The translations under genes were made by a program, and so were the position numbers. From contig OZ234493.1 in NCBI GenBank assembly GCA_965153455.1, forward strand, positions 32,602,213-32,666,212: 64,000 bases of DNA, in the 5' to 3' direction. Source of the stretch: Sphagnum compactum (lineage: Eukaryota). Positions 3,191 to 57,009 of this stretch are shown here, piece by piece. Below the pieces are notes generated by a model. The model saw nothing but the letters and a program-made list of their open reading frames with translations, was not told the origin of the DNA and ran no database searches. Position 1 is the first letter of the stretch. Each line of letters begins with the position of its first letter.

Positions 3191-3329
3191 GGGTTTTTTT
3201 TTTGGCGGGGAGGGGGGCGGCGCGTGATTATGGAATGTGCCCCGTAGAGGCCATTGTATGTCCCCACAAGGTCAATTTGGTTAAGTCCGGGTAAGTCAAG
3301 CCAAAGATTTTGTGACCGCCCGCGTGAAC

Positions 3330-3770
3330 CCGGCACATTCCAGAACATAATGGTTTTCACCGTTTTGCCCCATGGGCACGTGGGGTTTTGAACCATGGTT
3401 AGGTCAGATTGACCCAAGAAGAGCTGTTCACTGTGCCTTGTGAGGGGCTGAGAGAGAGGGGGCAGGCAGAAAAGGCCACATGAAAAACATTACGTACAAT
3501 AAAGGGCCACCAAAAGGGTGGATTTGGGGGGCTCCTATACTTGCCTAGTCCATAATACGACCCGGAATCCGCCCTGGAGGGCCCTTTATTGGGTACATAA
3601 TGGTGTTTTCATATTGCCTTTTTCTGCCTTTTCTTAAGACCCCTTCTTTTTTTGTCCTCCTTATTACAAAGGACCACAATGGAGAGGTTTCTTCTTGGGT
3701 ATACCTGACCTAACCATGGTTCAAAATCATGAAAACCATTATGTTATGGAGCATGCCAGGTGCAGGTCAT
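3330..3770. mobile_element. Foldback/MITE-like element with long imperfect inverted arms (~3330-3510 vs ~3578-3770)
   Basis: ttttgaaccatggttaggtcag pairs with ctgacctaaccatggttcaaaa. aacataatggttttca pairs with tgaaaaccattatgtt. aataaagggcc pairs with ggccctttatt. Confidence 0.65.
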
Positions 3771-6232: not shown

Positions 6233-9200
6233 ATGGCAACTCCTATCGGAGTCCCTCCAAAGATGATGATGAAGCCGGTGGAGGATTTTCAGCATCCTGC
6301 TTTAGAGCAGCTTCCTCATCTTGCTTATTGTATCAATGATAATCCTCGATTGGGTAAGGAAAAGGAAGCAAAAGTACAAGTGTTGGGTCAAGGATTTTTT
6401 GAAAGTTTGTTTGTTTCGTTTTTTGGAAAGAGTTTACGGAGATTGTGTGTGTGTGTGTGTGTGTGTTTTTTTTGGTTGTTGTTGCTGTGGGAAAACGTTG
6501 TGAAGTTGGAAAGAATGAATTCGTATAATTTATTTCCTTGGTGATTGATGTCTGAGGAGGAGTAGGAGGGAGGAGTTTTTCTGAAGAAGACGCTAATACG
6601 ATGTTATTGTTTGTTTGTGCAGCGACAGCAATCATCTTAGGCTTTCAGCACTACCTTACCATGCTGGGGACTACAGTACTGATCCCAACTCTTATATTTC
6701 GTAGCATTGGCGGACATTCGGTGGGTCCATCATCTGGAGCAAGAAACAAAGAGAGAGAAGAGCTAGAGCAAGCTTTGACACTTCTTTTTTGGGAATACTA
6801 ACTTCTTGAGCTTTCGCTTCTTCTGTCTGTACCTTGTGGGTTTTGGTGGTGGGGTGTTGAGGAGCAGTGGGAAGTCTGATTGTGAGGGTTTGCGATTGTA
6901 CACATTTGTGTTTGCAGGGCGATTTGGCTCGAGTAGTACAGAGTGCGCTGTTTGTGTCAGCTATCAATACCCTGGTGCAGACTATACTGGGCTCAAGACT
7001 GCCGGCAGTGATGGGAAACTCTTTCTATTTCCTTCCTATTACCTTGTCAATCGTCAATGCTCCTCGCATCGTCGACATTGGAGACCCGCATGAGGTGGGT
7101 GGACGACCCTGTTTTTTTTTCCTCTTCTCCTTTCCTCTTTTCCTTTCTTGCCCACATCCCTGCCTATCTGCATTCCTTTTTCTTCCCTCGAAAAAACAGC
7201 AACGATGGCTTGTTCCAACCCACCCATGTGCAGAGATTTGTGCACGCAATGAGGGCAACGCAGGGAGCTTTCATCGCTGGTTCAGCCCTAAACATCATTC
7301 TTGGCTTCAGTGGCATATGGGGCATAGCTGCCAGGTAAATGAAAAGCCCCATCTCCTCTTCTTCTGGTGCTTGAAAGCCCCGTCTCTTCTTCTCCTTTTT
7401 GTGCCATCCCATTTCTTGTCCTGTCTGTGTTTTACAAGAAGAACAACCCAATGCTCAAATTGTGGTCGGGGACAGACCTAAGAGCTTGAAATCATGTTTT
7501 CTTCATTCAACAGCTCTGTGTGGGTCAAGAAGAACTATGCCTTAATTGCAATACCCATCTAAATGAAAACCCTATCATGCAAGAACTCAGCGCAAGCCCT
7601 GAGTTCTGCAAGAATGTAAAGTTCAGAATACTTTGGTGATGAAGTTCTCTTTGTCAGTTCTAGTTCTGAGGCTTGCCTGTTGTAGGTGTAAGTTCTATCA
7701 TCAAAGGCTCTTGATGACAGATAGATACAGAGAGTTCTGATCCCATGAATGCTGCTGGGTGCAGGCACGTCAGTCCCATTGTCATTGCCCCTGTTACAGC
7801 CATTGTGGGCTTGGGCCTTCTGGAATATGGGTTCCCTGGGGTATGTTGTCTATGTCCCTATGTCAGTTGTGAGAATCAGCATTATCAGCATCATCTTCTT
7901 AGTGTTCCTTTTCTTCTCCAGTTGCATTGCAGTAAGTTAACCCTGAAATTGTATAAAGCAGTTTTATACAATAACCCCATCTTATTGTTCCTGGCTTTGG
8001 CAGATTGGCAAGTGTGTAGAGATTGGCATTCCAGCTTTGTTACTTATATTGCTCTTCTCGCAGGTAGGTACCTCCAACTCCCTCCTGAGATGTCTGCTAA
8101 TTTTGCAGCTTTTTATTTTTACATTTGTGTGTTTTTTATTTACTTCAATTTCTTGGATTTATTGAGTTCAACTCCACATGAAGCTGCACTTGAAATCATT
8201 GACTAACATCTTTCATTGTTTGTTCTGATGATCAGTATTTTAGGCATATCAACATTCGGAGATTTCACTTCTTCGAGCTCTTTCCTATAATCTTTGGGGT
8301 GGCAATTGTATGGGTTTATGCAACGATTTTAACTGTAGCTGGAGCTTATAATCATGCTAGTGCACTGGGACAAATCCATTGTCGCACTGACCGGAGTGGT
8401 CTGGTCTCCCATGCACCCTGGTAATTTATTATTGGTTTTTCATTGTATGTCTTTTCTATATTCTCTCAAGCTGATGCAAGCTGTAGCATGATCATTCAAG
8501 TCTTAAATCTTCTTGTGGGCCAATTCCTTTGCATACAGGGTTCGGCTCTCTTATCCACTTCAATGGGGTTCTCCTACGTTCAATGCGGGAGATGCATTTG
8601 GAGTCATGTCAGCAGCATTTGCTGCTCTTGTTGAGGTACAAGTTGCTCCTGCGATTTTGGCTTGTGTAGTAGTAGTAATAATCGTGTACTTTTTCTTCTT
8701 CTGTTGTTTTACTAATGGTTGTGGGTTTGACCTTGCAGTCAACTGGTGGGTTTTATGCACTTTCACGATTGGCAGGAGCAACTCCTCCCCCACCTGTTGT
8801 TATTGGTCGAGGAATTGGATGGCAGGGTATTGGGGTCTTGTTGAATGGTTTCTTTGGTACCTTCACTGGTGCTACAGTTGCTCCGTAAGTACACAACTGA
8901 TGAACTTTACACTGTCTTATCTACAGAGTGATTGGTCTTCATTTAATCCAATGGTTTTGTTTTGGATCTGTTGTATCTAATAAGAACTCCATTTTTCTTC
9001 TGCCAGTGAAAATATTGGCCTAGTTGGACTCACGCGTGTTGGAAGCCGAAGAGTGATCCAAATTTCTGCCTTGTTCATGTTTTTCTTCTCCATATTTGGT
9101 GAGTGTCTTTTGCAGGATATCCTGCTTTACACTTGCTATTGTACTCAAAAAACAGTTAGTTTGCATGGACAGCATTTTGAGGGTTTTCCTTATAATGTTA

Positions 9201-9945
9201 TTTTCATTGAGTGCAGGCAAATTTGGAGGAATTCTTGCTGCTATTCCACAACCCATTGTTGCTGCCATTCTCTCCATTACTTTTGGAATGGTTGGTGAGT
9301 ACTATAATTTTCTGAAAGACTTTTCTCTGAACAAACATTCATTCTTTATGCTTGATCCTCATATGTAATGTACCTCTTAACAGATGTAAACATGGCTTTT
9401 TTCATCAATCTGATTTGAGTATTTTGGTGGTTTGAAACAGTGGGAACTGGACTTTCCCATCTCCAATTTACGAACATGAACTTGACTCGCAACATCTTTG
9501 TTGTTGGCTTCTCAATATTCCTGGGTTTATCGGTTCCTCAATATTTTTCTGAATTTGCTATTCGGTCTGATCATGGTCCAGTTCACACTCATGCACTATG
9601 GGTAAATTTCCTTTCTCTTTTTTCATATGTTGCCTTTTCTGTGGGAATTTATTATATTTGAATACAGTCTTTCTTTGCCATTTTGGTAACACACTTACAT
9701 GCCATGTTTCTGTGCTGTGACTTGTACAGTTCAATAATATTCTGAATGTGTTCTTCGGTTCTCCGGTGATTATCACAATTCTTGTAGCAACCGTTCTGGA
9801 CCTAACGCTTACAAGGCATGTGACAAAGAGGGATCGGGGTAGATTGTGGATCAAAAGGTTCAAAGGTTTTGAAAACGATCCCAGAAACTATGAATTTTAC
9901 CGGCTCCCTTTTGGTCTTCACCGAATGTTTCCCCCGACAACCTGA
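6233..9945 (+). CDS. NAT: Nucleobase-ascorbate transporter (NAT/NCS2 xanthine-uracil permease family), 13 exons: ~6233-6353, 6623-6720, 6918-7094, 7234-7334, 7765-7840, 8004-8063, 8236-8420, 8539-8635, 8739-8884, 9007-9098, 9217-9294, 9441-9601, 9730-9945
   Basis: GT-AG exons join to give ILGFQHYLTMLGTTVLIP, GSRLPAVMG, RATQGA, PLQWGSPTF, the NAT signature ENIGLVGLTRVGSRRVIQ, GKFGGILAAIP and C-terminal DPRNYEFYRLP. Confidence 0.93.
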
Positions 9946-13666: not shown

Positions 13667-14500
13667 TTGCAAACATGCTAGAACTATGGCCAATGATGGA
13701 TCCACTTGGCCATCCACATGCGAAAGGTGACATGGAACACAATTCCACACATGGTTTTTCCATAATCAACCATCCCGACCTTCCAACAACAAAACCCTAG
13801 AAAGTAAAACCTTTTCATACAAAGAATGACACACCCAACCATCACATTTAATGTGCTAAGTGTTGTATGTTGCAAATAAACATAATCCTTAGGTTCAAAC
13901 CTTAAAACCTTGGGTCGATATCCACATCCATGGATGGTGGCATATCATAATGTAATATTTTGATGTTATGCAATGGCCAAGTTTTCCATAGCCATCACAT
14001 GGTTCTTTTGAACAAGGCTACATATTGCTCACAAGCTTGGACCCACACATTGGGATCATCCAAATTAACCACATAGTCCACATCCCTACAAGTGGATGCC
14101 AATAATTGGGGTTCATGCCTAAAAGGCAAAAAGTAATAGGAAAATGATGCAAGGGATGTTTGCTTGCTGAATCGATATCCCATGGGCAACAATGGTAGTT
14201 ATATGTCCCAATCAATTATATGCCCCTTTTGTAATCCATATTTTTGCAAACCTTTTTTCACCATCTGTACCATTCTTTTAGCTAAACCATTCACTTTAAA
14301 ATGATCACAAAAAGTAATCCTATGGCTGTCGTGACGTGTAGTGTCGTGACATACAGTGTCGTAAGGTGTACATTCATAGGAAACTCTACTAACAAAAAGA
14401 CTAAAGCCAGTCAAAGATATAAACTAATCAACTAAAAAGAGATACATGCACACATATATATACAATGCACACGTGAGACTGAGATGAAATTCTCATGTAT

Positions 14501-14508
14501 CCCCCCCC
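14501..14508 (-). other. Polypurine-tract candidate (G8 on the - strand) just downstream of the integrase-PHD stop
   Basis: C8 run at 14501-14508, about 40 bp past the TGA at 14550 and about 175 bp from the element end. Confidence 0.55.
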
Positions 14509-14549
14509 AGACCTGAGCCGGGAAAAGCATGGCATGGTCTGAGTAGGAA

Positions 14550-15620
14550 TCAAGGTGCTGTAGGAGAACATGACGAACAGTACCAATTGCCAACGGGAAC
14601 TTGAGTGAGCTCCGGCTTGAGGCAGAAGAGATGGTATCCACCATTACAGTTGTCGCAAAGCAGCATCTGATCAGCATCGTCCGTCCTCTGACATACCTGA
14701 CATGGATAATCAAGTGGAGGAATCCAAGTCGACGTGATGATGGTAGGGTCCAAGTTTGGCAGGTGGCAAGGCGCACAATTTTTGGAATGATCCCGAATTG
14801 TGCGTCCGTCAGCTCCTTGTAGCTCCAACACACCTGAAGGCCTGATCGCCTTAATCCTCAAGATGGTGCGACCGGAAGAAGTGTCTAAAGTATCATTGGG
14901 TTGTCGCTGAAGATACACAAAATCACCAACATCAAATTGTCTCACCTTAGGTTTGTAACTGCCACCTCGTGTGTGTGCATACCGTAAGGTGTCTCGATGT
15001 TGTGCAATGGACAGGTTTTCCATGGCCATGGGCATAACCCTCCTGAATAGAGCGGCCCTTTCTGCAATGACCTTAGCCCAAATGGTTGGGGAGTCCAAGT
15101 CCACAACTTGGTCCATTTGAGCAACAATGGAAGAGGGTGGAATGGGATGTCTCCCAAAAAGTAAAAAGTAAGGGGAGAAATGAGATAAAGAGGTGTGTTT
15201 GGACATCCTGTAACCCATGGCGATGTAAGGGAGGGCCAGGTCCCAATCCTCTTTGTTCTTAGTGAGGCAAATCTTCCGAAGTCCCTTCTTGCATGTTTGA
15301 ACCATCCTTTCTGCAAGGCCATCAGCTTGGGGATGATCTCTTGAAGTCCGACGATGGTCAATGAGAGCATGGTCAAGTAGGTCTTGGAATTCTCCCCTGA
15401 ATTCTGATCCTTGATCAGTAAGGCATTCAACACAAGCCCCAAACCTACTTAGAACCTGTTGTAAGAAAGCCTGGCTAGTGCTGTGTGATGACTTGTCCGG
15501 TAGCGCAACAAGTTTGACCCACTTTGAAAAATGCTCAATCATAATCATGATGTAGACATTACCCCTGGAGGTCTGTGGTAATTCTCCAGCTAAATCACAT
15601 GACCAGCGATAGAACATGCC
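14550..15620 (-). CDS. Integrase catalytic core plus C-terminal PHD finger (3' part of the polyprotein, after a frameshift)
   Basis: DDE motifs WSCDLAG, LTDQGSEF, DGLAERMV. Also SPYFLLFGR and FDVGDFVYL. PHD CQVC...LLCDNC...YHLFC...WYCSSC at 14568-14702. Confidence 0.92.
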   Translation of the reverse strand, partial: GMFYRWSCDLAGELPQTSRGNVYIMIMIEHFSKWVKLVALPDKSSHSTSQAFLQQVLSRFGACVECLTDQGSEFRGEFQDLLDHALIDHRRTSRDHPQADGLAERMVQTCKKGLRKICLTKNKEDWDLALPYIAMGYRMSKHTSLSHFSPYFLLFGRHPIPPSSIVAQMDQVVDLDSPTIWAKVIAERAALFRRVMPMAMENLSIAQHRDTLRYAHTRGGSYKPKVRQFDVGDFVYLQRQPNDTLDTSSGRTILRIKAIRPSGVLELQGADGRTIRDHSKNCAPCHLPNLDPTIITSTWIPPLDYPCQVCQRTDDADQMLLCDNCNGGYHLFCLKPELTQVPVGNWYCSSCSPTAP

Positions 15621-18600
15621 CTCTCCAATGGTAATGAGGAGCGAGAAGGCTATAAGTACGCTTAACTCCAAAATGTCCAAGCTCCGAGTGTACTTTCTGA
15701 ATAAGACCAGGCCGTTCATGTGGTGGTGGAACCACTCTGTCGCCTTGTGGTAAGCATCGGACGAGGTGATTGTCCCTCCATGAGTAGCGTTTGGATCGCT
15801 GTTGTATGCGATCCCGCTGACTTGATGTAACTTGGGGAGGGTATTCCCCATGTTGAAGAAACCCCAGAGTGTCCAAGTCCTCCCATATATCCAGAATGGG
15901 ATGCTCAACCAGGTTACATTGCAGTAATGCAAGATAACTAGATGCCTCAGATACATGTATTGCTGGGATCTGGTCAAAATCTTGCCTGGCTTCTGAAAAA
16001 TCTTCAGAGGTAGTGAGGGGTCTTCGTGACATGGTATCCGCATTCTGATGTGTAATACCTGGTCGGTGAATAACCTTGAACTCATACTCTTGAAGTATAA
16101 GCGCCCAACGAGCTAACTTACCAGTAAGCTTATCGTTGGTCATCAACCACTTGATAGGCTGGTGGTCCGTATACAGAGTGAAATTGGTGCCATAAAGATA
16201 GGGCCTGAAATGTATGACGGCCCATACAACAGCAAGGCACTCCCCCTCGTATGAAGAGTAGTTGCTCTCAGCCTTGTTGTTGCTTCGAGATGCATAGGCG
16301 ATAACATATTCCTTGCCTTCCTCATCAAGTTGGCCCAGAATAGCTCCAATACCAAGAGCACTCCAGTCAGTGTGTAGAATGAAGACCTTGCTGAAATCAG
16401 GTCTTCTTAGAATGGGGAACTCTGAAAGCTTTTCCTTGAGTGTGTTGAAAGCTTCCTGAGCCTCTTCACTCCATGTCCAAGCAACATCCTTCTTTAACAA
16501 TGCATAGAGAGGATGAGCAATAGTACTGAAGTCTTGGACATAAATCCTGTAGTAATTACATAGTCCGATGAAGCTCCTCAAAGTGTGAACATCAGTAGGA
16601 TCGGGCATCTCCAAAATGGCTACTACTTTGGCCCAATGAGCCATAATACCATTTGGCAAAATTCTGTGTCCAAGGTAAACTACTGAGGTGACAGCAAACT
16701 CACACTTTTTAGGATGGATCTTCATATTGACTTCGTGGAGCCTCTTGAATAACTCCTCAAGATGAGCCAAGTGCTGTAGGAGTCCCTTGCTATGCACTAG
16801 GACATCATCTATGTAGCATTTCAGGAAATCTGCCCCTTCGAGAACTTGGTCCATGACTCGTTGAAAGAAGACAGGTGCATTCTTCAATCCAAAAGGCATC
16901 ACAAGCCATTCCCACAACTTATTGCTTCCATGGAATGCTGTTTTCTTGCGATCTTTTGCAACGAGCACAATCTGGTTGAAGCCTTGCCTCAGATCCACAA
17001 TTGTGAAGATGTTTGAGTCTCCAATGCTATCAAACAGTTCTTCAGGGATGGGCATGGGGTACCTGTCTTGAGGTGTAACCAGGTTCAAAGGCCTATAATC
17101 CCCGCACATCCTTTTCTCAGTCCATAATCCAGCTGAATCCTTCTTTGCTGGCATTACTGTAGCGGCTGCGAAATCAGAACTTGATGGCTGAATGAGACCA
17201 GCCTCATGGAGCTCTTTGCATCTTTCATCTACCAATTCCCATTCATGTTTGCTCAACCTATGCCTCCTTCGATAAACGGGTGTCTCATCTGTAAGGTCTA
17301 TAGAGAACTGCATGGTCTTACACCTACCTAAGTCTTTCATTGAGAATGCGAACACATTCTCATACTTAATTAGCAAGTCTGTGACCTGGTCTCTCTCCTT
17401 CTTGGTGAGCTGGTTCCCCATAACAAAAGGGTAGTTGGAAACACATGGAATGGAGTTGGAAAGTGTGTTTGAAGAACCTGATGTATTGGGTTCTCCATTA
17501 TCCAACTCCGTAGATTCGTAGAAGGTTGTAATTGTTTCTCCAGAAGCTGATGTACCTCCAGGTGTATTGGACATAACTTGAGTCAAATTACATGGTACCT
17601 CCTCCCCCCCAACACTGAGAGTGAAATGTAGAGTGTTGAAGATAGGCAAGTGTACTTGGTCGGGGTGCCATGTGGTTGCATCGTCAGAGCTGCAAGCTGA
17701 TTGAGTCAGTGTTGGTGTTGTGTACATTTGAAAGAGTACACAGGTTACCAATAACCATGTAAGGGAGTTCAGGTCCATGCTTCTCCCGAGTAGAGCGTTA
17801 CGCTCCAATCTAGTCACCTTGGTGTGACTAGTAGTGCCAGTTTGGAACCCCATAGCCCTTTCTCTTTCTTCTGGGCTTGGTTCATCCCAAGTGGCTGAAG
17901 CATGACGATACACCAAGCCTGGTCCATCTCCCTGAAAGGCGTGTGCTCCAGGGAAGGAGACAAAGGTGGGCCAAACACCTCTTGGTTTTCCTATTGTATT
18001 CGCAGGAAACCAAGGAGGTTTCTCTTGCCTTGTAACTGGTTGGCAAGAGCTCTGATCATCCAATATGTGAGAAACCTGCAGGTTGTGGTCTCTGATGGTG
18101 TATCTCAGAGCCAACTGCAGAATTGAAAGTGGTGCAAGGTTGGTCCACCAGTTGCGCAGCTGGTGCGCATAGGAACCGCATTGTGCCGCATCGAGTAGGA
18201 GTGGCTCTCCAAGGTAATGTTTGACAAGTGTGTAGTGCTCCTGGACTTTCTCCCTCTGGTCAAACTGAGAAGGGGTGTTCTCAATTACATAACCAAGCGT
18301 AGGGGAAATGGATTGAGCCCAGGTAATCAATCGTACCATGTCTGTGAAGAGACCGGATCTTGTGTCACTCAAGCCTTCTCCAAATCCAGCTGCTGAAAAT
18401 CCTTGACACTCCCAACCTGAAATGATGAGGTCCACGGGGCCAAGTAATTCCATATGCTTATTCTGAATTAATTGTATGTCAGGGGGCAAGAAAGTGAAAC
18501 TGGCCTTCCATGCGGTGGTTGTAAACTGTTGTGGAAATCTGGTTGTGAGCTCCATCATTCTCGATGCTGCCACTTGCCTTGCAATAGGATCAATGTCTAC

Positions 18601-18705
18601 GTAGAAATACCTTCGGACCACCATCCCTGACTGTAGTAGGGCTTCGAGACCTGTACCAATACCACCAAAGAGCTCTAGTAATGTAATCCCTTCCTTAGGT
18701 GGTGT
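15621..18705 (-). CDS. Pol segment: DNMT3-like C5 cytosine methyltransferase (~17745-18687), reverse transcriptase, RNase H and integrase N-terminus
   Basis: MTase motifs I LELFGGIG (upstream of the ORF-track start), II [53 protein letters not shown]...LLGRSM. RT has CGDYRPLN, DLRQGFNQ, MPFGLKNAP and YIDD (16804-16815). RNase H has LHTDWS, EGECLAV, YTDH. Integrase HH is VHSELGHFG. Confidence 0.92.
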
Positions 18706-20010
18706 CTAGGTGATTAGCTGACGGAGTAATGGCTTAATCGGTTCGCCATGGCTCTCCATGCTTTCAAAACTAGACAAAGCTTTGACCAAGGGCTTGTAGG
18801 CTACTTTGAACCTTTGTAAAACCTCTGGTCCATGTTGAATGTCAGTAGGAACCACCCTCAAGCTTTCAGTAGCTTGAGCGTAAGCTATCTCTTCTTCATC
18901 TCCCTCTATCCATTCGTGGCTAGCTTGTTGGATGTAGGAAATGGTGTGTGCTTCCTTGAGCATACAATGGTGAGCCATAGGACTATGGTTCCCATGTAAA
19001 TCAAGGGGTATGTATCCCAGGTGGTGGCCATCAGTCTCCCAATCCACTCGGTAGTACGCATGTTCGAACCAATTGTCAATTGTAAAACCTGGTGGAAACA
19101 GGGCCTCTTGCCCAATGAGCACATCGTAACTAGTGGCATTGGTGACTAAACATCTGACCTGTAGGCAAAGCTCCTGATCTGTACCTTCATTGAAATTAAG
19201 TGCAATCAAATCCGAGCTCTCCCCAAGTACCTCCTCTACGCTCCCACTAGCGGTGCGAATGTGCCACATAGATTTTCGTAGTTTGGAGTCGAGCATGCCC
19301 ATCTTCTTGGCGAATTGAACTCCAAGAATCACTGGTTGGGCACCTGTATCAAGAAGAACCACTCTGGGTGTATGTCCTCCCACCTGGATTGCTGACTTAG
19401 TATTGTCGACAATGGCAACTCCGGTGGCGATGGAAGTTCTCTCACTAGGCACCACCTTCAGAAATGAGTGAGAGACTTTGTGGAGAGAATGGCTATCCAC
19501 AACGCCTTTGCTGAGTAACAAATCCACAAGTGAGGTGTTCTTAACTCCCTTTTGATATGTGAATGTAGAATCAGAGGTAGGAAAGCTCACTAGTTTAGCC
19601 ATGCCAGAACTAGTGACTAGATTACGAACGCCATCTGCAACACGTGAACCAATCGAATGTCTCTCCAAGGTGTTGGATGGGACCTCTGTAGCATGTGGAT
19701 TAGGGGTTGGTAGAGGACCTGATGTAGTGTTCAAGGTATCCTCTAAGATTGCAATTATGTCCCTGGTGCTTAGCTTCAAATCTTGAAAACTAAACAATGG
19801 TGTATTCACAAGCTTTTGCGCCACTTCATGCATTTGAAGTTGGCATTCCATAAGCTGATCAGTGGAAAATTGTGTGTTTTCCTTATGTACATGTACTCCT
19901 GGGACATGAGAATTTGATGCCCTAACAGCTTGTGGTGTAGTAGTCTCCTCCCCCCTCGCCAACAAGGTGCCTTCTTCTTCCATGTTGAGAGGACGAAAAG
20001 ATTGTGGCAT
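18706..20010 (-). CDS. Retroviral-type aspartic protease segment of the polyprotein
   Basis: VLLDTGAQ active site, IRTASG flap and YDVLIG. Same frame as gag and pol, separated from each by a single stop codon. Confidence 0.88.
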   Translation of the reverse strand: MPQSFRPLNMEEEGTLLARGEETTTPQAVRASNSHVPGVHVHKENTQFSTDQLMECQLQMHEVAQKLVNTPLFSFQDLKLSTRDIIAILEDTLNTTSGPLPTPNPHATEVPSNTLERHSIGSRVADGVRNLVTSSGMAKLVSFPTSDSTFTYQKGVKNTSLVDLLLSKGVVDSHSLHKVSHSFLKVVPSERTSIATGVAIVDNTKSAIQVGGHTPRVVLLDTGAQPVILGVQFAKKMGMLDSKLRKSMWHIRTASGSVEEVLGESSDLIALNFNEGTDQELCLQVRCLVTNATSYDVLIGQEALFPPGFTIDNWFEHAYYRVDWETDGHHLGYIPLDLHGNHSPMAHHCMLKEAHTISYIQQASHEWIEGDEEEIAYAQATESLRVVPTDIQHGPEVLQRFKVAYKPLVKALSSFESMESHGEPIKPLLRQLIT

Positions 20011-20016
20011 GACTGC

Positions 20017-21852
20017 TCAAGCTCCTTTAGCCCTGGTAATAGGACTTGAACCAGATGCGAGTCCATCAGTTTGAATTACCTGCCTAGTGGCAGAAACTCT
20101 GGGTGCCACACTAGTTTCTTGTGCTGCGACATAGGAAGGGCAAAAAGAAGTAGCCAATTCTGGTGTGAGACTAGAATTGTGTGGAGTGGAAAGAACATAC
20201 TCCCCAACCATTGCATCGTGTGGAAGGCCATAGAACGACCTAGGAGGTCCCTCGCGTGATCCTGAACCTTGTACAGGTTGGGCATGACTAGCTGATTGGG
20301 AGGACTTGCCTTTTAGATTAGCAAGTTGGGCCCTCAATGATTCGAGTTCATTTTGTAAAGTCTGAACTTGAATTGCATGGGCTTGAAGCACCTCCCTCTT
20401 ATCAGCATTGTGCTCCTTCTTCTTAGCATTCTTGTTGGAATTACCCTTGGTGGGCAAAGCCTGAGTGGAATGCTGAGGTGCCTTGGCTTTTGGTTGAGGG
20501 ATAGTGGAAGATGCTGGCAGATTTTGCCATTGTAATCGGAGTTGCTTCCGCTCTGGGAACTTGGCAAAACAGACAGATTCATGATGTCCCTCTTTCCCAC
20601 AATAATCACAAAAGAGATCCTCGGAAGGAATGTTGCACTCACTAGCTTTGTGGGCAGGATTGCCACAGTAGTTGCAAGAAGGTAGGATGGGTGTAGCCGA
20701 GTGCACCGCTTTAGTCCTTGAAGAAGAATGTGATGATCTAGTTGGTGCAGCTGTTGTAGGTTGAGGCCTTGAACGTGATGGAGGCCTCATAGTACTGGCC
20801 TCATAGTGTGCATGAGCCAGTTCTAGCTTTTCGGAAATGTTGTACACATCCAGCAACGTGTACGAGTCTCCAAATTCTGCAAAGACTCGTTGCAAAACCT
20901 GTGCGTGGAGTGTTGGAGTACCTTCCAAAGAACGAAGATACCGATGGGCAGCTTCTAAGTCGGTGATGCTCTGGGTATCCTCTTTGAGTTTGAGAAGCCT
21001 CCTGTAAAGCATCTTGAGGGTTTCATCCTTCTGCCGAGAGAAGGTGGCGAGCTGCAGAATTTTTTCAGAACTTTTGACTGGAAATTCCAGCTCAAGAATT
21101 CGAAAGAATTCCCCCATTGGATCAACAAAAGCTGGCGCATCAATGGTGGGAGGAATGTTTGCAGTAGCAGCAATGAGTTGTTGAGGAGAGAGGTTTACCG
21201 AGGTAGGTACCGGGTCTGGATTATTCGGCACAGTCCCGTGATGTGCAATTGCAGCTTGTAATGCAGCTTGAGAGGCGGTGGCGATGGCTATGGCGTAAGC
21301 TGGATTGGGAGCTTGGGTGACACCCAAAATCCTTGCAGAATGTTGCTCGTAGACATCCAATGCCTCATAATGCACATAACGGGCCAATTGCTTAAATGCA
21401 AACGCTTCGGTGTAATTAGCACCATACTTCAGCTCCAACTCACAGACCACTGTTGAGAAAGTTGCCTTGAACTCCCTCAACGAAATAGTACCTGGCCTTC
21501 CGCTGAACTTCTCTATTCTCCCAGAGGAACTGCTGACCTCCATGGTGTATATGGGTGTTGAAGTCACAGCTTGCAACGGAGTATATGGTGATGGTGTGAA
21601 AGCAGGTGCAGTAGTAGGTGTACCCCACTGATTAACCCCTCCAAATGGGCTCTGGTGTGTTGTTGATGTAGTGTAACCCAAACCTGAATTCCTAATAGGA
21701 GTTGTACTAGATGATGATGGTGCTGTGGATGCTTGGTGATACCGTCGTGAGCATCGTGAACTCAAAGATATTGGTTCAAAGGGTTGTGTGTTACTTCGTA
21801 ACTGATACCTTGGCTCTGGATGAGTAATGCTACTTTCATCATCCGAGGACAT
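20017..21852 (-). CDS. Gag protein with two CCHC zinc knuckles
   Basis: 611-aa ORF with IEKFSG, RQKDET-type capsid-like motifs, and knuckles CNYCGNPAHKASEC and CDYCGKEGHHESVC. Confidence 0.88.
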   Translation of the reverse strand: MSSDDESSITHPEPRYQLRSNTQPFEPISLSSRCSRRYHQASTAPSSSSTTPIRNSGLGYTTSTTHQSPFGGVNQWGTPTTAPAFTPSPYTPLQAVTSTPIYTMEVSSSSGRIEKFSGRPGTISLREFKATFSTVVCELELKYGANYTEAFAFKQLARYVHYEALDVYEQHSARILGVTQAPNPAYAIAIATASQAALQAAIAHHGTVPNNPDPVPTSVNLSPQQLIAATANIPPTIDAPAFVDPMGEFFRILELEFPVKSSEKILQLATFSRQKDETLKMLYRRLLKLKEDTQSITDLEAAHRYLRSLEGTPTLHAQVLQRVFAEFGDSYTLLDVYNISEKLELAHAHYEASTMRPPSRSRPQPTTAAPTRSSHSSSRTKAVHSATPILPSCNYCGNPAHKASECNIPSEDLFCDYCGKEGHHESVCFAKFPERKQLRLQWQNLPASSTIPQPKAKAPQHSTQALPTKGNSNKNAKKKEHNADKREVLQAHAIQVQTLQNELESLRAQLANLKGKSSQSASHAQPVQGSGSREGPPRSFYGLPHDAMVGEYVLSTPHNSSLTPELATSFCPSYVAAQETSVAPRVSATRQVIQTDGLASGSSPITRAKGA

Positions 21853-22092
21853 GGTGTTGTCCCATGCCCCAAAATTTTGTACTAATATAATCCCTCAATT
21901 ACAAAATTCTAACACAATGTATGGTTTGAATCTCCCTAATTGCAGGACGATAGTATGGCAGAATGTAGCAAGATAAGCTGCAAGACACAAGACCACACAA
22001 TGCACGACCACAGTGCGAAGAACACAGGAAACAGGACTGCAGTACAGTAGTACGTAGGACGCAGGACGGCAAAGCGCAGGACGGCAATACGG

Positions 22093-22350
22093 TGATGTCA
22101 GCAGTGACGTAGGCAGGACGCAGGACGAAAACACGATGACGTCAACAGTGACGTAGGACGACAGGGCGCAGGACAGCAGTACGGTGACATCAGTAGTGAC
22201 GCGGAAGGACGGTAGTACGATGACGTCAGCAGTGACGCAGGAGGACGGCAGCACGATGACGTCAGCAGTGACGTAGGCAGGACGGCAACACGATGACGTC
22301 AGCATTGACGTAGGCAGAATGGCAACACGATGACGTCAGCAGTGACGCAG
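22093..22350. promoter_or_regulatory. Tandem array of seven as-1/ocs-like elements (TGACGTCAnnnnTGACG) in the retroelement leader
   Basis: Units at 22093, 22137, 22185, 22221, 22257, 22294 and 22331. Each has two TGACG-type half sites exactly 12 bp apart, as in CaMV as-1. Confidence 0.7.
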
Positions 22351-22416
22351 AACAGTCCGACGAACGTCGACGGAAGTCGGACGGACCAAGGTCGCAGCGA
22401 TGGTGCTGCAGCTCGC

Positions 22417-22960
22417 AACGTTGCGACGCTGCGGCGCTGCTGTGGCAGCGTGCTGCTGAAGCGATGGCGCTGCGGCGCTGCACTGCTGCTGCAGCGTAGG
22501 CGCTGCGGCGCTGTTGCTGCACTGCTGCCGCAGGGATGGCGCTGCGGCGCTGCACTGTTGCTGCAGCGCTGCACTGCTGTCGCAGGGATGGCGCTACGGC
22601 GCTGTTGCTGCGGTGCTGCACTGTTGCTGCGGCGCTGCGGCGCTGTTGCTGCGGTGCTGCACTGTTGCTACGGCGCTGCACTGTTGCTGCAGCGATGGCG
22701 CTGCGGCGCTGTTGCTGCGGCGGTGCTGCTGCGGCGGGGCTGCTGCAGCGATGGCGCTGCGGCGCTGTTGCTGCGGCGGTGCTGCTGCAGCGATGGCGCT
22801 GCGGCGCTCTTATTGCGGCGGTGTTGTTGCAAGCGCTGTTGCGGCGGCGGTGCTGCTGCAGCGATGGCGCTGCGGCGCTACGACGCTGCAGCGTTGTGGC
22901 GCTGTAGCTCGCGGCAACGGCGGAACGCAACGCCCTGCGGCGCTAGAGCTCGCTGCTGCG
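22417..22960. repeat. GC-rich degenerate repeat island (gcggcgct / gctgca / gcgatggcgct units) in the retroelement leader
   Basis: Many copies of gctgcggcgctgcactgttgctgcagcgatggc-like units, very dense in CG and CWG. Confidence 0.85.
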
Positions 22961-23107
22961 AAGTGATGGCAGGCGGCGCTACGCTGCCCTGCAGCGATGG
23001 CAAGCGGTCGGCGCCGCAATTCTTGTTTTTTTTTTTCTTTTTTTTCGACAACTTGAAGAGAGAAAAAGAATGGGAGAAAGAGAGAAGTTTTGACACCTGA
23101 TCTCTAA

Positions 23108-23612
23108 TGTCTCGACTTCGTTTGTCCCTGCTTGGTTGGTTGTAAGAAACGCAAAGCTCCCTCCAACAACACCAGTAGCAACAGTAGTAACGCGCTCCTT
23201 CCGGCAACAACAACACGAGTAGCAACAACTCAAGAATTTCAAAAGCACAAGAAATCTGTTGCTTTCAACATGAAGCAACAGGGAATATAGTTTTTCTAGA
23301 ATTGAAAATGCAAAGCAAGAAAGAAATGAAATGTATGTAGACGGTGGCCGTGCAATGGCCGCTGTGAGCATCTAGAAATCCTAGCTTATGATGGAGAAAA
23401 CTCCTAACAAAGGAATTCTAGAAAAACTAAAGGAGAAGGGCAAAGCTTGGCCCTTTTATACAGCCACCAAAGCTGAAACCCTAAATACCTAATAGCGTAC
23501 AGTCACTTATGAACGCACATTAACCCTACAAACGTACATTAGCCCTCAAAAGACATGATGGGCATGCCCGTAGCCGGCCATCATGTATGAGGCCGTGCAT
23601 ACGGGCATGACA
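23108..23612 (-). promoter_or_regulatory. 5' LTR-like module (505 bp, TGTC...GACA bounded) with TATA box and no 3' counterpart
   Basis: On the - strand it begins TGTCATG (23612), contains TATAAAAG (23460-23453) and ends GTCGAGACA (23108). Confidence 0.55.
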
Positions 23613-26339
23613 TGGTTAATTAGAGCTTGCCAACACAAATTTTGAATTTTTCTTCCAAATTTCGTGCATTAATCCATGAATACTTCTATTGGAACACTAA
23701 ATTTACTCAAGAAAAACTTCGTGCCCTAATCCATGAGTACTTTTGTTGGAACACCAAATCTACTCAAGACCTAATCTAAAAATGCATAAATGGCCCTCTC
23801 ATTATTTTTGTCTCAAATGGTGGCAATTCAATCCACTTCAAAAAATGTTCAATCATAACCAACACATAGTAGTTATGATGAACAATAAGCTTAATGGCCC
23901 AACAAAATCCGAGCTCCATTGGTATCCAAGCCCCATGATTGGTAGAGGTTGTAAATGAAGGGTGGGTGCATTAAATGAGGCATGAACCTAGTCACACACT
24001 ATGCATTGTGAACCTCCATTGAACCTCCAATTACATGCCTTTCCACTAATATTGGCCTTGAAGCAAATTGTAGGTTTGACGTATCCCAAAATGTCCCAAC
24101 TCCTATGGGTATGTCTCACACTGCTTTCTCACATTTTTGGTCATGGTACCACTTGTACATGCTCATCTTGCCATATCCTGAGAAGGTGTTGGCCTTTCCA
24201 ATGATATCTTTTGGCCTTTTGAAGAACCCAATCTTTTTCCTTGAATGTTAATCCTACATCCAATTCCCTTATTTGTAAATAGGTCAACATTTGGGCATCC
24301 CCAAAGATGTCCATAGATCTAATGTCATCAAGTTTAATTTCCAAATTCCTAGAAGTGCCTAAAGGATTCACTTGAACTTGACATGATACCTCTTAGCAAC
24401 CATTTGCCATGATGCAAATAAATGAAACAACATGCCAACCAAACACTATCTCCAAATCAATTTCCCCATGCCAACGTGCTCCAATGGTGTCCAAATCACT
24501 AGCACTTGGGTTCCTATTCAACCCATCCACATCCTTATTAACTATCATGGCCCAATGTTTGGCATCAAAATCATATTCTTGAATAATGAAAGCCCATCTT
24601 GACAACTTCCCCATGAACTAGTTAGACTCCATGAGCCACTTCAATGGCTGGTGATCTATGACCAAATGAATGGGCTACCAAACAAATAACATGTGGCCAT
24701 GGCCCACACAATTGCCAAAAAATTCCCTCACATGAACTATATTAGGCCCTTATTTGGTTGTTGGACTAGCTTGCATAAGCAACCACAACTTTTGATTTTC
24801 CTCATTAGGTTGTATGAGGACTGTTCCAAGTCCCAAAACACTCCAATTTGTCTGCAACTGGAAAAGACAACCCCTAATAGGTCACCTCAAAATGGGTGCA
24901 GAATTAAACTTAATTTTCAACTCTTAAAATTTTTGTTCTTGTGCATCCCCCCAAATGAACTTTTCATTGACCTTGGTAAACTAGTTAAAGGTTTCGGAAT
25001 CCGACTAAAACCTTTGACAAATTGTCGGTAATAGTTTGCCAACCCAAAGAATGCTCTTAACCTACTAACATCAATTGGTCTTGGAACCTTGGAAATTGCA
25101 TCCACCTTGGCCTTTCGAATTCCCAAACCTCATGGGTAAATCATGTGGCCCAAATATTCAACTTGGGATTGAAAGAACTTATATTTTCCTGGGGTTTAAA
25201 CCATGCACCCCCAAACAGTCAAACACATTTTGCAAATGATGATTATATGTGCTCCTCCATGGTGGAATTAAACACAATGATGTTCTCAATGTAGCATGTG
25301 GCAAAATCCAAACTTGCAAGCACCCGATCCATCACCTTCTGGAATTCTATAAAGGCATTCTTCAACGCAAAAGGTAAGAATTTCCATTGATGTACAAACA
25401 ATCCTTCCCATTTTGGTCAATGCCCCATAATGCAATCTTCACCTTGTCATTTTCACAAAATGGCAATTGGTGATATCCAGATCATAAATCCAAAGCGTTA
25501 AACACCTTCGTATGGCCAATTAAATAAAAAATCTCCTTTAACAATGGCATGGCATATTTTTCTGGACATGTCATGTACACTTGTTGGTACGTCTATAATA
25601 TCCACACATCTAACATTTAATATAATTGCAAAGATGTCTTTTTTGGCAGGCGTATTGTGGCTAATGCATACTCCCCTTGAAAAAGCTCCACCAACCCTAC
25701 CTCTAAAAGTTCTTTTATTCGAGCTTTAACCAAAACTAATTTCATATCATTTAATTTGTAAAATCTTTGAAAAATAAGGGTATCATCTAAGCTAATGTGT
25801 ACTTCTTGCCCCTTGAATTTACCCAGCTACTTGAGGTTGAAAGCAAAACAATGAACATAATCATGTAACAATTGTCGCATCTTGCATGCCTCACTTCCTA
25901 TTACCATGAGATCGATTTTTGGTTCCCATGTTTCTATAATTGTAGGTGCCTTGGTATTGGATGGTGACTCATCCTTAATGCTCGAGGTTGAGGCTACACC
26001 TTATAATTGCTACATGAAGCCCCCATTGCATGTGCATCTGAAAGTCCCTTCACCTTCTTCAAACAAGTCCAAAATCTTGGATGCATTCATCATGTATGTT
26101 CCTCATTCCAAACATTGAGCATTCATGGCATCCATCACCCTTTCCCTTCGTGCAACATCCCATAATTGCCAAGGGTGTTTGGCCCATGTAGGATCACTAG
26201 ATGTGACCTTGTGATCATGCCACCCCCCCTACATGAATGCACTTGTCCCAATATGAAATGTAGGATAAGGTGAAGTAGAAAAATGGTTTAGTGGATGGGT
26301 AATTTACAATCATCGTTGTTCAACCAAACCTAGGTTAAT

Positions 26340-33644: not shown

Positions 33645-34680
33645 CCGGCCCTTACAACCACGGTCCCCGTCAAGCATGTAATTTGTCCCTTTGTAACCAT
33701 CGTCCCTTAAGCTTGAATGTTGGCCCTTACAACCATGGTCCGGCAAGCATGAAAATTCGTCATTCTTTACAACCATGGTCCCCCCTCAACCATGAAATTT
33801 GTCCCTTTATAACCATGATTATCCCTTAAGCTCAAATATTGTCCCTTACAACCACCACGGTCGCTTAAGCATGACTATCATCCCTTACAACAACCATTGT
33901 CCCTTAAGCATGAATATCAGCCCTTACAACCACCATCGTCCCTTATGCTTGAATATTGTCCCTTACAACAACCATTGTCCGTTAAGCATGAACATTGGCC
34001 CTTAAATATCCGTCCTTTAATCATGAATATCATTCCTTACTACAACCAGGTCCCTCCTACAAAGCATGGAATTCGTCCCTGAACAACCTTGCTGCCTCAA
34101 GCATGAATTTCGTCCCTTGACTATGAGTCCCTTAATCGTGGACTTTGTTCCTTGCAACCTTGGTCCTTCTGAAGCATGAATTCATTCCTTAACTATAGGT
34201 CCCTTAATCATGAATTTGTCCCTTATCTGGTTGGCTTTTTCACACTGCAATTATATTCATTCTCATTTCAGGTCAGACTGTGGTGAGTTGTGCTTCTCAT
34301 GTGGATGTCATATCACACGTCTGTCCCATTAACCATGGTCCCCCAAGCATGAACTTGTCCCTTAATCATGGTCCATTTAATTGTGAATTCGTCCCTTTAA
34401 GCATGCCCCCTCAAGCATGAACTTGTCCCGTGACTATGGTCCATTTAATTGTGAATTCATCCCTTAAGCATGGGCCCTTAAGCATGAACTTGTCCCATAA
34501 CTATGCTCCATTTAATTGTGAATTCATCCCTTAACATGCCCCCTCAAGCACGAACTTGTCCCTTATCCATGGTCCATTGAATTGTGAATTCATCCCTTAA
34601 GCATGGCCCTCAAGCATGAACTGGTCCCTTAACCGTGGTCCATTTAATTGTGAAATCATCCCTTAAGCATGGGCCCTTGA
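33645..34680. repeat. Degenerate minisatellite array (~35-40 bp units, gtcccttacaaccatggtcc...aagcatgaat)
   Basis: Recurrent cccttacaacca / aagcatgaa / ccatttaattgtgaattc cores over about 1 kb. Confidence 0.85.
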
Positions 34681-43583: not shown

Positions 43584-43714
43584 TTAACTGGCATGGATGG
43601 GGTTACGGTTAACTGTTAACTGGCATGGATGGGGTTACGGTTAACTGTTAACTGGCATGGATGGGGTTACGGTTAACTGTTAACTGGCATGGATGGGAGT
43701 TACAGTTAACTGTT
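43584..43714. repeat. Tandem repeat, 4 x 32 bp, upstream of H2A.Z
   Basis: ttaactggcatggatggggttacggttaactg at 43584, 43616, 43648 and a variant at 43680. Confidence 0.92.
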
Positions 43715-48559: not shown

Positions 48560-49300
48560 CTTGTGTTGTCCCCATCATGTTACTAGTGTTGCTCGTGGTT
48601 TGTCGGATTGCTAGCATTATTAGTTTATTGCATTGTTAGTGTTGTTGGTTTGTCATGTTGCTGGTGCATCACATTGTTGGTGTTATTAATGGTTCATCAC
48701 ATTGCTAGTGGTGCTAATGGCTCATCACATTGCTAGTAGTGCTAATGGTTCATCACATTGTTAGTGTTGCTTGGGTTTCGTCACATTATTAAAACTATTC
48801 GTGGTTTGTCATGTTGTTGGCGTTGTTATGGTTTGTCTATTACTATCGTCAGTTTGTCATGTGTTGGTGGTACTTTTGGCGCGTCACATTGCTAGTGCTA
48901 CTATTGGTTTGTCATGTTGTTGGTGTTATTCCTAGTGCGTCATGTTGCTAGTGTTGATGTTAGTGTGTCATGTTATTAGTGTTGGTGTTGGTTTATGGTG
49001 TTATTATTGTTCGTGTTGTAGTTTAATTATTGCATTATTAGTGTTGTCGTTTCTTCGCATCGTTGGTGTTACTTGTGATCCGTCGTATTGCTGGTGCTAG
49101 TGTTAGTTTGTCACATAACTAGTTTTATTGTTGATGCATTGCGTTGTTGATGTTGTTGATTCATCGTATTGTTGGTTTGTTACATTGTTAGTGTTGTTGT
49201 TGATTTTTTGCATTGTTGGTGTTATTATTGGTTCATCACATTTATGGTGTTGTTGGTTGTTCGCATTGTTGGTGTTATTGTTGGTTTATCACATTTATGA
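48560..49300. repeat. Low-complexity GT-rich degenerate repeat (tcacattgctagtg / gttggtgtt)
   Basis: Recurrent short motifs and no credible protein. Confidence 0.7.
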
Positions 49301-50976
49301 TGTTTATCTTTTGTTAGAAGATTTTTGTATTGTATAAATAATTATTATATTTAACCACATGTGTTTTGTTAACAAGTTCATGTTATAACTATGTTTAATT
49401 TGTCTCCCATTACAACGACTAAGATGGCAGCAGCCACAAATGACGTGGCAATGCAAAATATGCTTCTATTGATAGATAATATTTTGCCACATAAGACATG
49501 TCTAAAACCAGGGGGTAGGATTCTTAATAAAGGTGCTAAAAACTTTTTTTTTGCTTCAACACATGGCACACCAACCTTGGTAGATTTCTATACTTATGTT
49601 GAATTGAACAAAAACATTATTATCGAAAGTCCATGTGAATTAGTGGCATATAAGGTAGTAAGAGTGGAATAAATGTAAAGACATGGTAGAGGTAGAAAGG
49701 ATTTAGCTAGGTAATAAGGGTGGAGTAAATGCAACTTTAGGTTTAGATCATGAAAAAAATTAATAGTAGAAGGGGGAAAATGCAATTTGATTTGTTGACA
49801 ACATTCATTTGAAAGTTCATCCATTTTATTTAGATCATTCATTTTTTTCATCCAAGAAAATCGTTCATCGATGACACGTGGCAAAATAATCTTCCACATC
49901 ACCAAATATTTCTTTGACATCAACAAGATATTCTTGAAAAGATTCCTTTGGTTCATTTGTTTACACCCACGTGCTCACCATTCATGCTCACACGTTCACA
50001 AAATAGCACCCCTGAACCTAAAGCTATGAACCTAAGCAAGCTTACCTACCTAGGTTGACTTGGCAAAAAACCTAAAGCTAGGAATTTGGGCAAGCCTACT
50101 TAGGTTAACCTATTAGTAAAGTAACATATTTTAGGTATATTTAAACATACTAGATGTAGTAAATTTATTATGTCTAGTTAAGTAACTTAAAAAGTAACTT
50201 ATATTACAAAATAGGTTTTTACTAAATAGCCTATACATAGGTTAATTTAATAGATATGTTAACCTAAGCTAGTGTGTTAAATAGTTAAATAGTCAATGAG
50301 TTATGGGTCACCTTTTTCAAAATGATTATTAATATTGTAGTCATAATTATAATTAACAATAAATTGTTCAATACACATACACATGCATGTGAATTCATGA
50401 TTTCAAAAACATCATAGCACACCAAAAAAAATGGCATGCCATGACAAATATTGGTGCCATAAATTCAAAACACATAAAAAATCATGGACTGCCATGAAAA
50501 TTTGTGACACTTTGTTGCCATGCCATGTCATCATCACATGGAAGACATGGTCATTATTAATCGCAAAGGACAACAATATTTTCAACTAGTTAATAAATGA
50601 GATTAATTTATCAAATCAATGACATGAATCATGATGTCAAGTTAGTGTCACAAATCATGAGGTGTTGTGATTACTAGTCAACCTCGTTGGCATGTGGCAT
50701 GCCATGTCAACATCACACGACCATAAGTTGTTAATATTCACCAAAAGTTGCCAAAATGAATGGAATTTTGTTATTAACTAATTTTGGATAATTAAAAATA
50801 CATTAAAAATACATTTTTGATATTTTGATATTTGTGTAAAAACCATCAAATCATGATATCAACTATAATTACAAAATGATAATGCCATGTGGCACCATAA
50901 TGTCTTTTACAACTACATAGTCATTAACATGAACTTATAGTTATAATTATAGTAAAAAAAGACAATAGTCGTTTTA

Positions 50977-54900: not shown

Positions 54901-55414
54901 CAATCACCAATGAGAGCAGGCTGCTGATTATTATTGAAAAATAGCCAAGATGCCTCCTCGGTGCACCCCCAAGGCTACTATTTCCAATCACAGCCCGCAT
55001 AAAGCAGATGACTGGACATAACCAACATCCGTTACATCCATAACCCCTATTCAGCAGATGGATGCACATCAGTTTTTCATTCATTATACAGAATGGACAT
55101 GGTATGAACATTCACAGGGACTAGTTTGAACCCCATGCCTAATGCACAGGTGTGTTATTTCAACAATGTTTGGTTCATGTTTTAGTTTTTTTTTTAAACT
55201 TTTATCTTTTTTATTTTTATTTTATGTGTTTTCTGTTTTTATTATTATTTTGTATAATAAAAATAAAGTGTTTCTTTTTCACTTTTGTATTTTTGTTTAT
55301 TTGGATGCAAGTTTGAAGTTTGGAGAAAGAAGACACACCTGTAATGTTGGAATCCTTTTGATTAGAGTTACCCATAAAGTCAACAAATTAGGGGGGTCCT
55401 ATTACGTGATATAA

Positions 55415-55762
55415 GGGGCACTATAACAAGGTGCCCGTCGTGCTTTTGCTGCCCATAATATTCTAGGTGCTTGTTCACCAAGAAAAACGGACTCTACTAC
55501 GAGGTGCCCATCATATTTTTGCTACCCATATTAATATTCTAGGTGCTTGTTCACCAAGAAAAACGGACTCTACTACAAGGTGCCCATCATATTTTTGCTA
55601 CCCATATTAATATTCTAGGTGCTTGTTCACCAAGAAAAAAGGGGCCCTATTACAAGGTGCCCATCATATTTTTGCTACCCATATTAATATTCTCGGTGCT
55701 TGTTCACCACGAAAGAAGGGCCCTATTACAAGGCGCCCTAATATTCTAGGATCTTGTTCACT
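55415..55762. repeat. Tandem repeat, about 5 x ~65 bp
   Basis: acaaggtgcccatcatatttttgctacccatattaatattctaggtgcttgttcaccaagaaaa repeated. Confidence 0.9.
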
Positions 55763-55808
55763 TGTGTTCTAGTCATGACTTAAAAGTGTAGGGTAAGGCC
55801 TTTACGAC

Positions 55809-56113
55809 ATGGGTTGTTAATTTACCTCCACAAATTAGGGCCTGCATGATGCAATAGCCGAGTGTGGAATTGTCTCTCGTGCAGACCTGATTCTCGTAAT
55901 GGTGTCATCTAAGGGCCTTCCAAGTCATAAAGAAAGAGGCCAATGGACAACATCAAACAAGACATAATATGCAGAATTGGTGGTCGAGATAAACTTGTAT
56001 GACTACATGAACCCACCTCATAATAACATATGGGGAATTCTACAAACCATAAGAACCCTAGTCCTTCAAATGAAAGGCACGGTCCTAATTGTGGAGGTAA
56101 ATTAATAACCCAT
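55809..56113. mobile_element. MITE-like element with ~30-bp terminal inverted repeats
   Basis: atgggttgttaatttacctccacaaattagg (55809-55839) is the near reverse complement of cctaattgtggaggtaaattaataacccat (56084-56113). Confidence 0.6.
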
Positions 56114-57009
56114 ATAGTCGAGCCTAGGTTTTTACATTAAAAATATTCTCCCTTGTTCATGAGTTTTACCCGTAATAAAGTATGAAACAAACCCTATCAT
56201 AAACATACGGAGATCATGAGCCGGTGGAGGAGTGAGTATTCTTATGCCTACTCTTTAATAATGAGTACACTTACTCTTTAAGAGTGAGAGGGATCTTACA
56301 CCTACAAGTATTGGACTACAAGGAAATAGGTGTAAGATTCCTCCTTTATTGTAAGAGGGATATTCATGGATATATAAACGTGCCCTCCCAATACACGGTA
56401 CCAAATTTGTGGGTGTGATTTAGGTGGGGACCCATCTTCTCAAAGGCTAATACAAAGCAAGCAAAGTGGTGTTTGGAGGGGGGGGGGGGTGGGTGGTGTT
56501 GTAAGAGTCAATTTGCAGATAGAATTGGTCTCAAATGACAAGCCACCTACTTTAGAAACATATGCCAACAACAAAACAAAAGCACAAAACTATTATCCAC
56601 AATAGCAAGAGACAGAACGTTACATAAAAGGGGCCCATTATAAAGGGGTTTGGTTGTTGTTACACTTGCATGCTCATTGCTCAAGTTATGCCAGGAGTTC
56701 ATGACTTGGTCTTCATAACCAACAAACCACCACAACATCATGCAAGTAGTTAGAATTTAATCATGGATAATATTATGTAGGGTTTTTAACTCATGTTTTA
56801 TAATAGACCAATATATTTTAAGATTAGTATATAATAATAGGTCCATGCATAATTAGTTTTATGTCAAACTCATTTCATTAACATTCATATTGACCCTCAA
56901 AATGGTTGGGTTTAGAGGTGGGAGTTCTTGTTGTTTGTATTGCTCACAATGCTTGCACTAGCTAGTGTCACTGGTAGTACTTTGTGCAATATTAACAAGG
57001 AGATAACAA

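Follow-up and report, generated by a model that had tools for sequence, protein, structure and literature searches.

The retrotransposon at 14327-23612 (minus strand) of the window, the 64,000-nucleotide stretch of the Sphagnum compactum genome analysed here, is a Ty3/gypsy element with DNMT3-like and PHD domains, and its insertion ends lie inside its LTR unit A-GC-B, at the palindrome ACA-GC-TGT. LTR retrotransposon replication regenerates identical LTRs. In the textbook case it is the ends produced by reverse transcription that an LTR element inserts, end-joined circles usually being deemed by-products. Judged from inserted copies, it is probable that the present element is a self-primed Ty3/gypsy element whose attachment (att) site has moved from the LTR edges into U3 and whose cDNA ends are joined.

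The true termini are the TG at 14327 and the CA at 23612, where the matches of genomic relatives end exactly, in agreement with the TG...CA termini of the original prediction. The window copy is flanked by tggc on the left (14323-14326) and tggt on the right (23613-23616), which had been taken for a 4-bp target-site duplication (TSD) and is one, with a single mismatch. An exact 4-bp TSD was found in 23 of the 24 copies with both ends in hand, the window copy being the sole exception, and a 5-bp TSD in none of the 24. Because the family ends are fixed and the 4-bp TSD is exact in 23/24, a reading of the flanks as atgg/atgg, shifted by one base, is superfluous. Comparison of the 24 TSDs gave no target motif. 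Of the older metagenome elements (22), 10 had an exact TSD and 5 a TSD with one mismatch, and from 7 no TSD was recovered.

Segment A (14327-14500, minus strand), the 3′ end of the inserted element, is the first part of U3 and runs from the polypurine tract (PPT) to the CA half of the att palindrome; it measures 174 bp in the window copy and 174-175 bp in the family, and is followed in longer copies by GC-B-A. Segment B (23301-23612, minus strand, 312 bp), delimited by copy comparison, is the 5′ end and holds the TG half of the palindrome with the rest of U3, R and U5. The PPT, the G8 proposed earlier, was located at 14501-14508 (minus strand) and is kept in most of the 73 classified metagenome loci. 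Segment A has no homologue elsewhere in the window copy, the best blastn-short match being 12 nt (E 0.078), and a self-comparison of the element, suggested as a check in the original prediction, gave no end-to-end homology. The statement that the approximately 175 bp after the PPT are unlike the 5′ module is thereby borne out, and the 8-mer shared between them (atacatga) is meaningless, a word of at least 8 nt being shared in 401 of 500 shuffles, which is chance level. The 505-bp 5′ module itself is not one thing, consisting of repeat unit B together with the primer binding site (PBS) plus the leader's start (23300 downwards).

The coding frames, all on the minus strand, carry protease, C5 DNA methyltransferase, reverse transcriptase (RT), RNase H, integrase and PHD finger in this order (Pfam). 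A gag-like frame (20017-21894) with two CCHC-type knuckles seen directly, and with no gag match in the Pfam scan, terminates at an in-frame stop, as does the aspartic protease frame (18706-20016; Pfam gag-asp_proteas, E 1.6e-6). The frame 15595-18705 holds the DNMT3-like C5 methyltransferase, RT, RNase H and integrase zinc-binding domain (Pfam), with Ty3 Gag-Pol (E 5e-71) and DNMT3A (E 2e-6) as best PDB matches. The integrase core, D-D-34-E (Pfam rve, E 4.5e-12), and a C-terminal PHD finger (E 8e-13) occupy 14550-16112, a frame severed from the upstream one by a deletion of about 105 nt near 15620, visible as a gap against a related contig (X12 record 9). With two in-frame stops and this deletion the window copy is broken; several relatives have a single open frame of 2,483 codons. 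Pfam gave no chromodomain match, and no tyrosine recombinase was matched in the 13 longer frames scanned.

Read on the sense strand, the family has the layout TG-B-internal-PPT-A-CA followed by 0, 1 or 2 GC-B-A units, and the window copy, with 0, is its shortest form. In the window's own genome (G000, 382 Mb), 186 candidates yielded 40 scored 3′ ends, of which 30 were fetched, along with 25 5′ ends. A single A was present at 8 of these 3′ ends, two at 21 (one being A-GC-A without B) and three at one, the second A at 22/30 resulting in split repeats, B...A-B-A. Further B starts were found by pattern in G000, 60 of 65 being fetched and 5 of the 98 B-start pattern matches lying outside the census, and 80 of 578 metagenome loci were added. 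The joint census holds 71 distinct B copies preceding the leader, every one without a same-strand A upstream, and 61 B copies between two A. Another 15 counted as B-A with no A recognised upstream; 8 of these were solo units, two of them having exact TSDs, and in the other 7 the upstream A or PPT region was shortened. A further 17 fell into no class (15 without a recognisable neighbour, 2 with an upstream A only). Among the 80 metagenome loci, some of which are one insertion seen in two assemblies, the long form was seen at 44 and the short form at 29, while 3 were without the region and 4 could not be scored. By this census of G000 and metagenome loci, the B/A split characterises the family and is not due to misassembly or to a single odd copy.

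The notion that the window copy belongs to an ordinary twin-LTR family and owes its form to rearrangement, recombination or misassembly is already largely refuted and must be considered extremely improbable. The only imperfect TSD among the 24 and the coding lesions would suit it, and the window copy may well have lost a GC-B-A unit after insertion, but its ends are shared by 23 others whose TSDs are exact, and they recur in independent metagenome assemblies. Twin-LTR copies, which the original prediction had named as the finding that would overturn it, number 0 among the 71 5′ ends, none of which carries a full LTR with A before B. Misassembly of the window copy was rejected separately, the same structure being present in the independent metagenome assemblies. 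The original prediction is partly supported as a whole. Its first branch, a non-canonical mode of replication or priming, gains support, and its second branch, a single aberrant or recombinant cDNA, does not.

Segment A starts at the PPT, B stops at the PBS, and the two meet at the palindrome, which is invariant. Given these boundaries, the established mechanism of reverse transcription should place the unit A-GC-B, about 489 bp, at both cDNA ends. Mismatches within copies were 0.73 for A and 1.8 for B versus 2.14 and 4.57 between copies, none of 20,000 permutations being as low (15 copies); both repeat pairs are regenerated in each copy, as LTRs are. All 18 young and middle-aged copies have GC as the spacer of the palindrome, and neither a purine tract nor a primer match was found at the palindrome.

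No TGG start of a tRNA-type PBS follows B, as noticed originally, and the PBS (23289-23300, minus strand) matches the element's own sequence, being complementary to the predicted first 12 nt of its RNA. Over 15-16 nt this site pairs perfectly with a B stretch that begins 31-32 nt after the TATA box. In the window copy the TATA box (23455-23460, minus strand) lies 32 nt upstream of the self-primer arm (23414-23428, minus strand), which is perfectly complementary over 15-16 nt to the U5 end and PBS and coincides with the predicted transcript start, placed by its distance from the TATA box. The predicted 5′ RNA folds with a PBS/self-primer helix (z -3.1). A perfect complement of at least 12 nt was present at 43 of 72 5′ ends, against 0 of 300 shuffles of the window's end, and was missing from 29, mostly older copies. 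No tRNA genes were found within the 64-kb window. The tRNA site appears to be replaced by a Tf1-type self-primer match, given the transcript start predicted from the TATA box. A PBS complementary to the RNA 5′ end is described for the self-priming Tf1 and Tj1 (PMC4600332), and self-priming has been predicted for plant Tcn1 elements (PMC6317226). In the parts of these sources covered, Tf1/Tf2/Tj1 and the plant Tcn1 clade resemble the window family in that the PBS is complementary to the predicted RNA 5′ end and not to a tRNA, but they are chromoviruses described with ordinary LTRs, whereas in the window family the insertion ends are inside U3, and a PHD finger and a DNMT are present.

The element was compared with four runs, all as contigs only, which may be DNA. 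In a run guessed to be RNA, one contig extends from the integrase through PPT-A-GC into B and ends near B position 249, and a metatranscriptome contig has the same joint with 31 nt on its short side; together these contigs fit, weakly, an RNA ending in the second B. All four runs had low cover over the GC-rich leader, to which no meaning is attached. The leader contains tandem repeats (22058-22908) rich in GC and CpG, the CpG observed/expected ratio being 1.18 in the leader against 0.15-0.24 in the flanks. These repeats also contain all 5 TGACGTCA words of the window, a bZIP-type motif, and may be a regulatory module or a target of the element's own methyltransferase.

In the mechanism we favour, the RNA would start in the 5′ B about 32 nt past the TATA box, pass A-GC and end in the second B, and its first approximately 12 nt would pair with the PBS and prime as in Tf1. 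Ordinary reverse transcription would then give A-GC-B-internal-A-GC-B. In the left LTR, integrase would cut both strands of the palindrome after CA, leaving at once two processed ends with a 2-nt GC overhang, and both of these would be inserted with a 4-bp duplication. The natural cDNA ends, that is the end of B and the start of A, would be end-joined either before insertion, in a 2-LTR circle, or afterwards as repair, giving B-internal-A-GC-B-A. The left LTR would be double-stranded first and so captured first, leaving the extra unit at the 3′ end only, and a still earlier capture in a one-LTR intermediate would give the short form. A cut in both LTRs or later recombination between A copies could also produce the short form, and for the window copy the loss of a unit by A-A recombination is equally possible as early capture. 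Only forms with a second B would have R at both RNA ends and be able to replicate; because the 3′ R is absent from it, the short form in the window should not be replication-competent. An age comparison meant to separate birth at integration from later recombination gave a short-form share of 4/19 in young copies, 4/11 in older copies and 29/73 in metagenome loci, the latter being partly duplicated insertions, and the age trend was not significant (p 0.42 and 0.18). At one locus, L025 (G000:C17:10226479-10227436), an inverted stretch of about 130 nt from the PBS and leader separates the second B from the terminal A, an arrangement outside the reach of the model.

The TG/CA ends with 4-bp TSD in 23/24 copies of the window family and in 4/4 copies of a second family, together with the DDE integrase, speak for the mechanism. 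Of six indels in 18 terminal units, five fall within 6 nt of the B/A joint (p 8e-8 under a uniform model, a value weakened by the AT-rich composition and microhomology of the joint, which could by themselves raise the indel rate). The junction indels differ among near-identical sister copies with 0-2 repeat mismatches. Because indels cluster at this joint and not at the palindrome, and differ between sisters, the B/A joint is read as end-joined. Two rare products are compatible with a cut at the palindrome followed by joining: in L024 an A-CA-GC is fused directly to an A start, and in G000:C18:2834211, an inverted product whose outer ends are intact, a single C links an A start to a TG-B end; the TSD of this product, aaaa, is hence weak. 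Against the mechanism, a plain 2-LTR circle would offer two equal palindromes, from which the extra unit should arise at either end, yet it was found at 0 of 71 5′ ends and at 61 internal 3′ positions. Further points against it are that the B/A joint is precise in 13 of the 18 terminal units, that 29/72 5′ ends have no 12-nt complement, and that the TSDs of the 22 older elements are only partly exact.

A second Gypsy-DNMT family in G000, of which six loci were fetched, is 46-53% identical to the window family in RT-RNase H where full length, and its repeats are unalignable. It has the same layout, with an A of 115 bp and a B of 340 bp, and keeps the junction GACA-GC-TGTCATG, intact in one copy and with transitions in three. 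The TSD is exact and the ends are TG/CA in all four copies, and the B/A joint is deleted in one of them. Its primer and site have different letters but are still complementary, at the same TATA distance, in 3/4 copies, the remaining copy having no 12-nt perfect complement. In both families a conserved PPT adjoins A and a conserved PBS adjoins B. The U5 of the window family ends CA-AT, and in the second family U5 ends CA and U3 starts with a few bases and then TG (G000:C7:101500-118500 and others); the CA and TG near these edges are possible vestiges of ordinary LTR ends.

PAT/Ngaro elements are tyrosine-recombinase retrotransposons with a replication model of their own. A replication of their type, in which the RNA would extend to the terminal A, template jumps of the RT would regenerate the split repeats, the B/A joint would be copied from RNA, and a circle closed at the palindrome would be opened by integrase with no host end-joining, would account for the extra unit being always 3′ and would suit the 13/18 precise joints. 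The layout moreover equals the DIRS-type A-coding-B-A-B described in PMC5890265, as far as that source was covered. Such replication is nevertheless unlikely here, given that a templated joint should be inherited, yet sister copies differ in their junction indels, and given the PPT next to A and the PBS next to B in two families; the single long contig guessed to be RNA, ending inside the second B, argues weakly in the same direction. PAT/TOC1/Ngaro and SymbioDIRS (PMC5890265) have the repeat order 1-coding-2-1-2 in common with the window family; unlike them, the window family has a DDE integrase, TG/CA ends, a 4-bp TSD, a protease and a PPT.

It is very unlikely that unusual priming or termination forms the cDNA ends directly at TG-B and A-CA, with no internal integrase cut and with tandem units arising by RT slippage or unequal recombination. 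That tandem units expand and contract is plain from the commonness of short forms (8/30 3′ ends in G000 and 29/73 metagenome loci) and from a copy with two units. Direct end formation however leaves unexplained why both families have retained a palindromic spacer of 2 nt, why GC or C is left at the rare joints, and why indels occur at the B/A joint but not at the palindrome, where neither a purine tract nor a primer match lies.

The integrase step of the favoured mechanism has a counterpart in retroviruses, foamy virus integrase being reported to cleave a palindromic circle junction (PMC1180852) and the integrases of foamy virus and HIV-1 to cleave 2-LTR circle junctions (PMC1905944, PMC4372172). 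In the parts of these reports covered, integrase cuts the palindrome into two processed ends, as proposed here, but the palindrome is formed by the joining of cDNA ends, whereas in the window family it is encoded inside each LTR. The joint between cDNA ends is, unlike in those viruses, a separate site that would end up inside the inserted element.

By class, the domain order, Ty3-like RT, DDE integrase, TG...CA ends and short TSD are those of Ty3/gypsy, with a gag that has no Pfam match, and a complete LTR at each end, bounded by PBS and PPT, is absent. No match to the chromodomain of chromoviruses such as Tcn1 and Chlamyvir was obtained, the integrase C-terminus having a PHD finger. The split direct repeats (B-internal-A-B-A) are those of DIRS, but a DDE integrase stands in place of the tyrosine recombinase, and the element is not a member of the DIRS order. 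The nearest described system is Gypsy-Dnmt3: KnitGypsy-Dnmt3 of Klebsormidium nitens (de Mendoza et al. 2018, PMC5890265) has, according to the Fig. 4 legend, Gypsy domains with repeats arranged as in DIRS, and like the window element it has a Dnmt3-like domain in the Gypsy polyprotein. That article, as far as covered, gives no TSD, palindrome, primer or mechanism for KnitGypsy-Dnmt3 and no land-plant member. The K. nitens protein P0023 resembles the window element in its PR-DNMT-RT-RH-IN order, 44% RT-RNase H identity and D-34-E spacing, but is partial, with no PHD seen, the algal element being compared by protein and description only. Streptophyte Gypsy-DNMT3 elements are mentioned in passing in the covered part of a 2026 preprint (10.64898/2026.05.21.726589). 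The repeat layout has accordingly been in print once, in the KnitGypsy-Dnmt3 legend, and the mechanism was not found in print in the portions covered. No account of an internal attachment site or of the mechanism was found in literature that largely excluded subscription papers and Repbase Reports, and a prior description is possible.

We would put at about even the chances that a green-lineage Gypsy clade has made cDNA end-joining obligatory, its integrase ignoring the ends made by RT and cutting a palindrome encoded in U3, so that only the end-joined form, the equivalent of a 2-LTR circle, founds copies and products with one LTR, like the window copy, are dead from the start. In a natural family that has recently expanded, the productive form appears to retain the junction left by end-joining, and an internal palindrome appears to serve for attachment, by which the old question of circles as integration precursors becomes testable on a eukaryotic element. 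It may also provide a route to split direct repeats without a tyrosine recombinase, and it shows a land plant to harbour Gypsy-Dnmt3 elements that have a PHD finger. LTR-pair annotation probably mis-bounds such families, LTR finders probably calling the long form with wrong boundaries and meeting no repeat pair in the short form.

Metagenome records that contain the sequence carry a moss label, and the named protein relatives come from Sphagnum, liverworts and streptophyte algae, by which a moss is the probable host. The usual integrase D-E spacing is 35, and D-34-E was found in 12 of the 12 proteins where the motif matched (window 15300-15450 and proteins P0016-P0042), a spacing common to algae, liverworts and mosses. 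DNMT motif IV (window 18390-18420) is GWECQ here and in several relatives and GWPCQ in others, the catalytic cysteine being retained. In the distant relatives P0016, P0021, P0024 and P0033 (39-42% RT-RNase H identity) the methyltransferase comes after RNase H and not before RT, an order from which the domain appears to have been moved or gained twice. The proteins P0005-P0013, P0018, P0020, P0022 and P0027, mostly 1,200-1,340 aa and including Marchantia and Calypogeia records, share the DNMT domain, have no RT match and are possibly another mobile or domesticated form.

Elsewhere in the window, exons of a xanthine/uracil permease-family gene lie at 6861-9298, about 5 kb from the insertion, and inverted-repeat pairs resembling MITEs at 1545-1749, 3325-3764 and 55804-56118. 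Tandem arrays are present at 23657-23769, 33695-34675, 43584-43697, 48579-49305 and 55407-55738, their periods being about 57, 39 and 67, 32, 28 and 76 bp.
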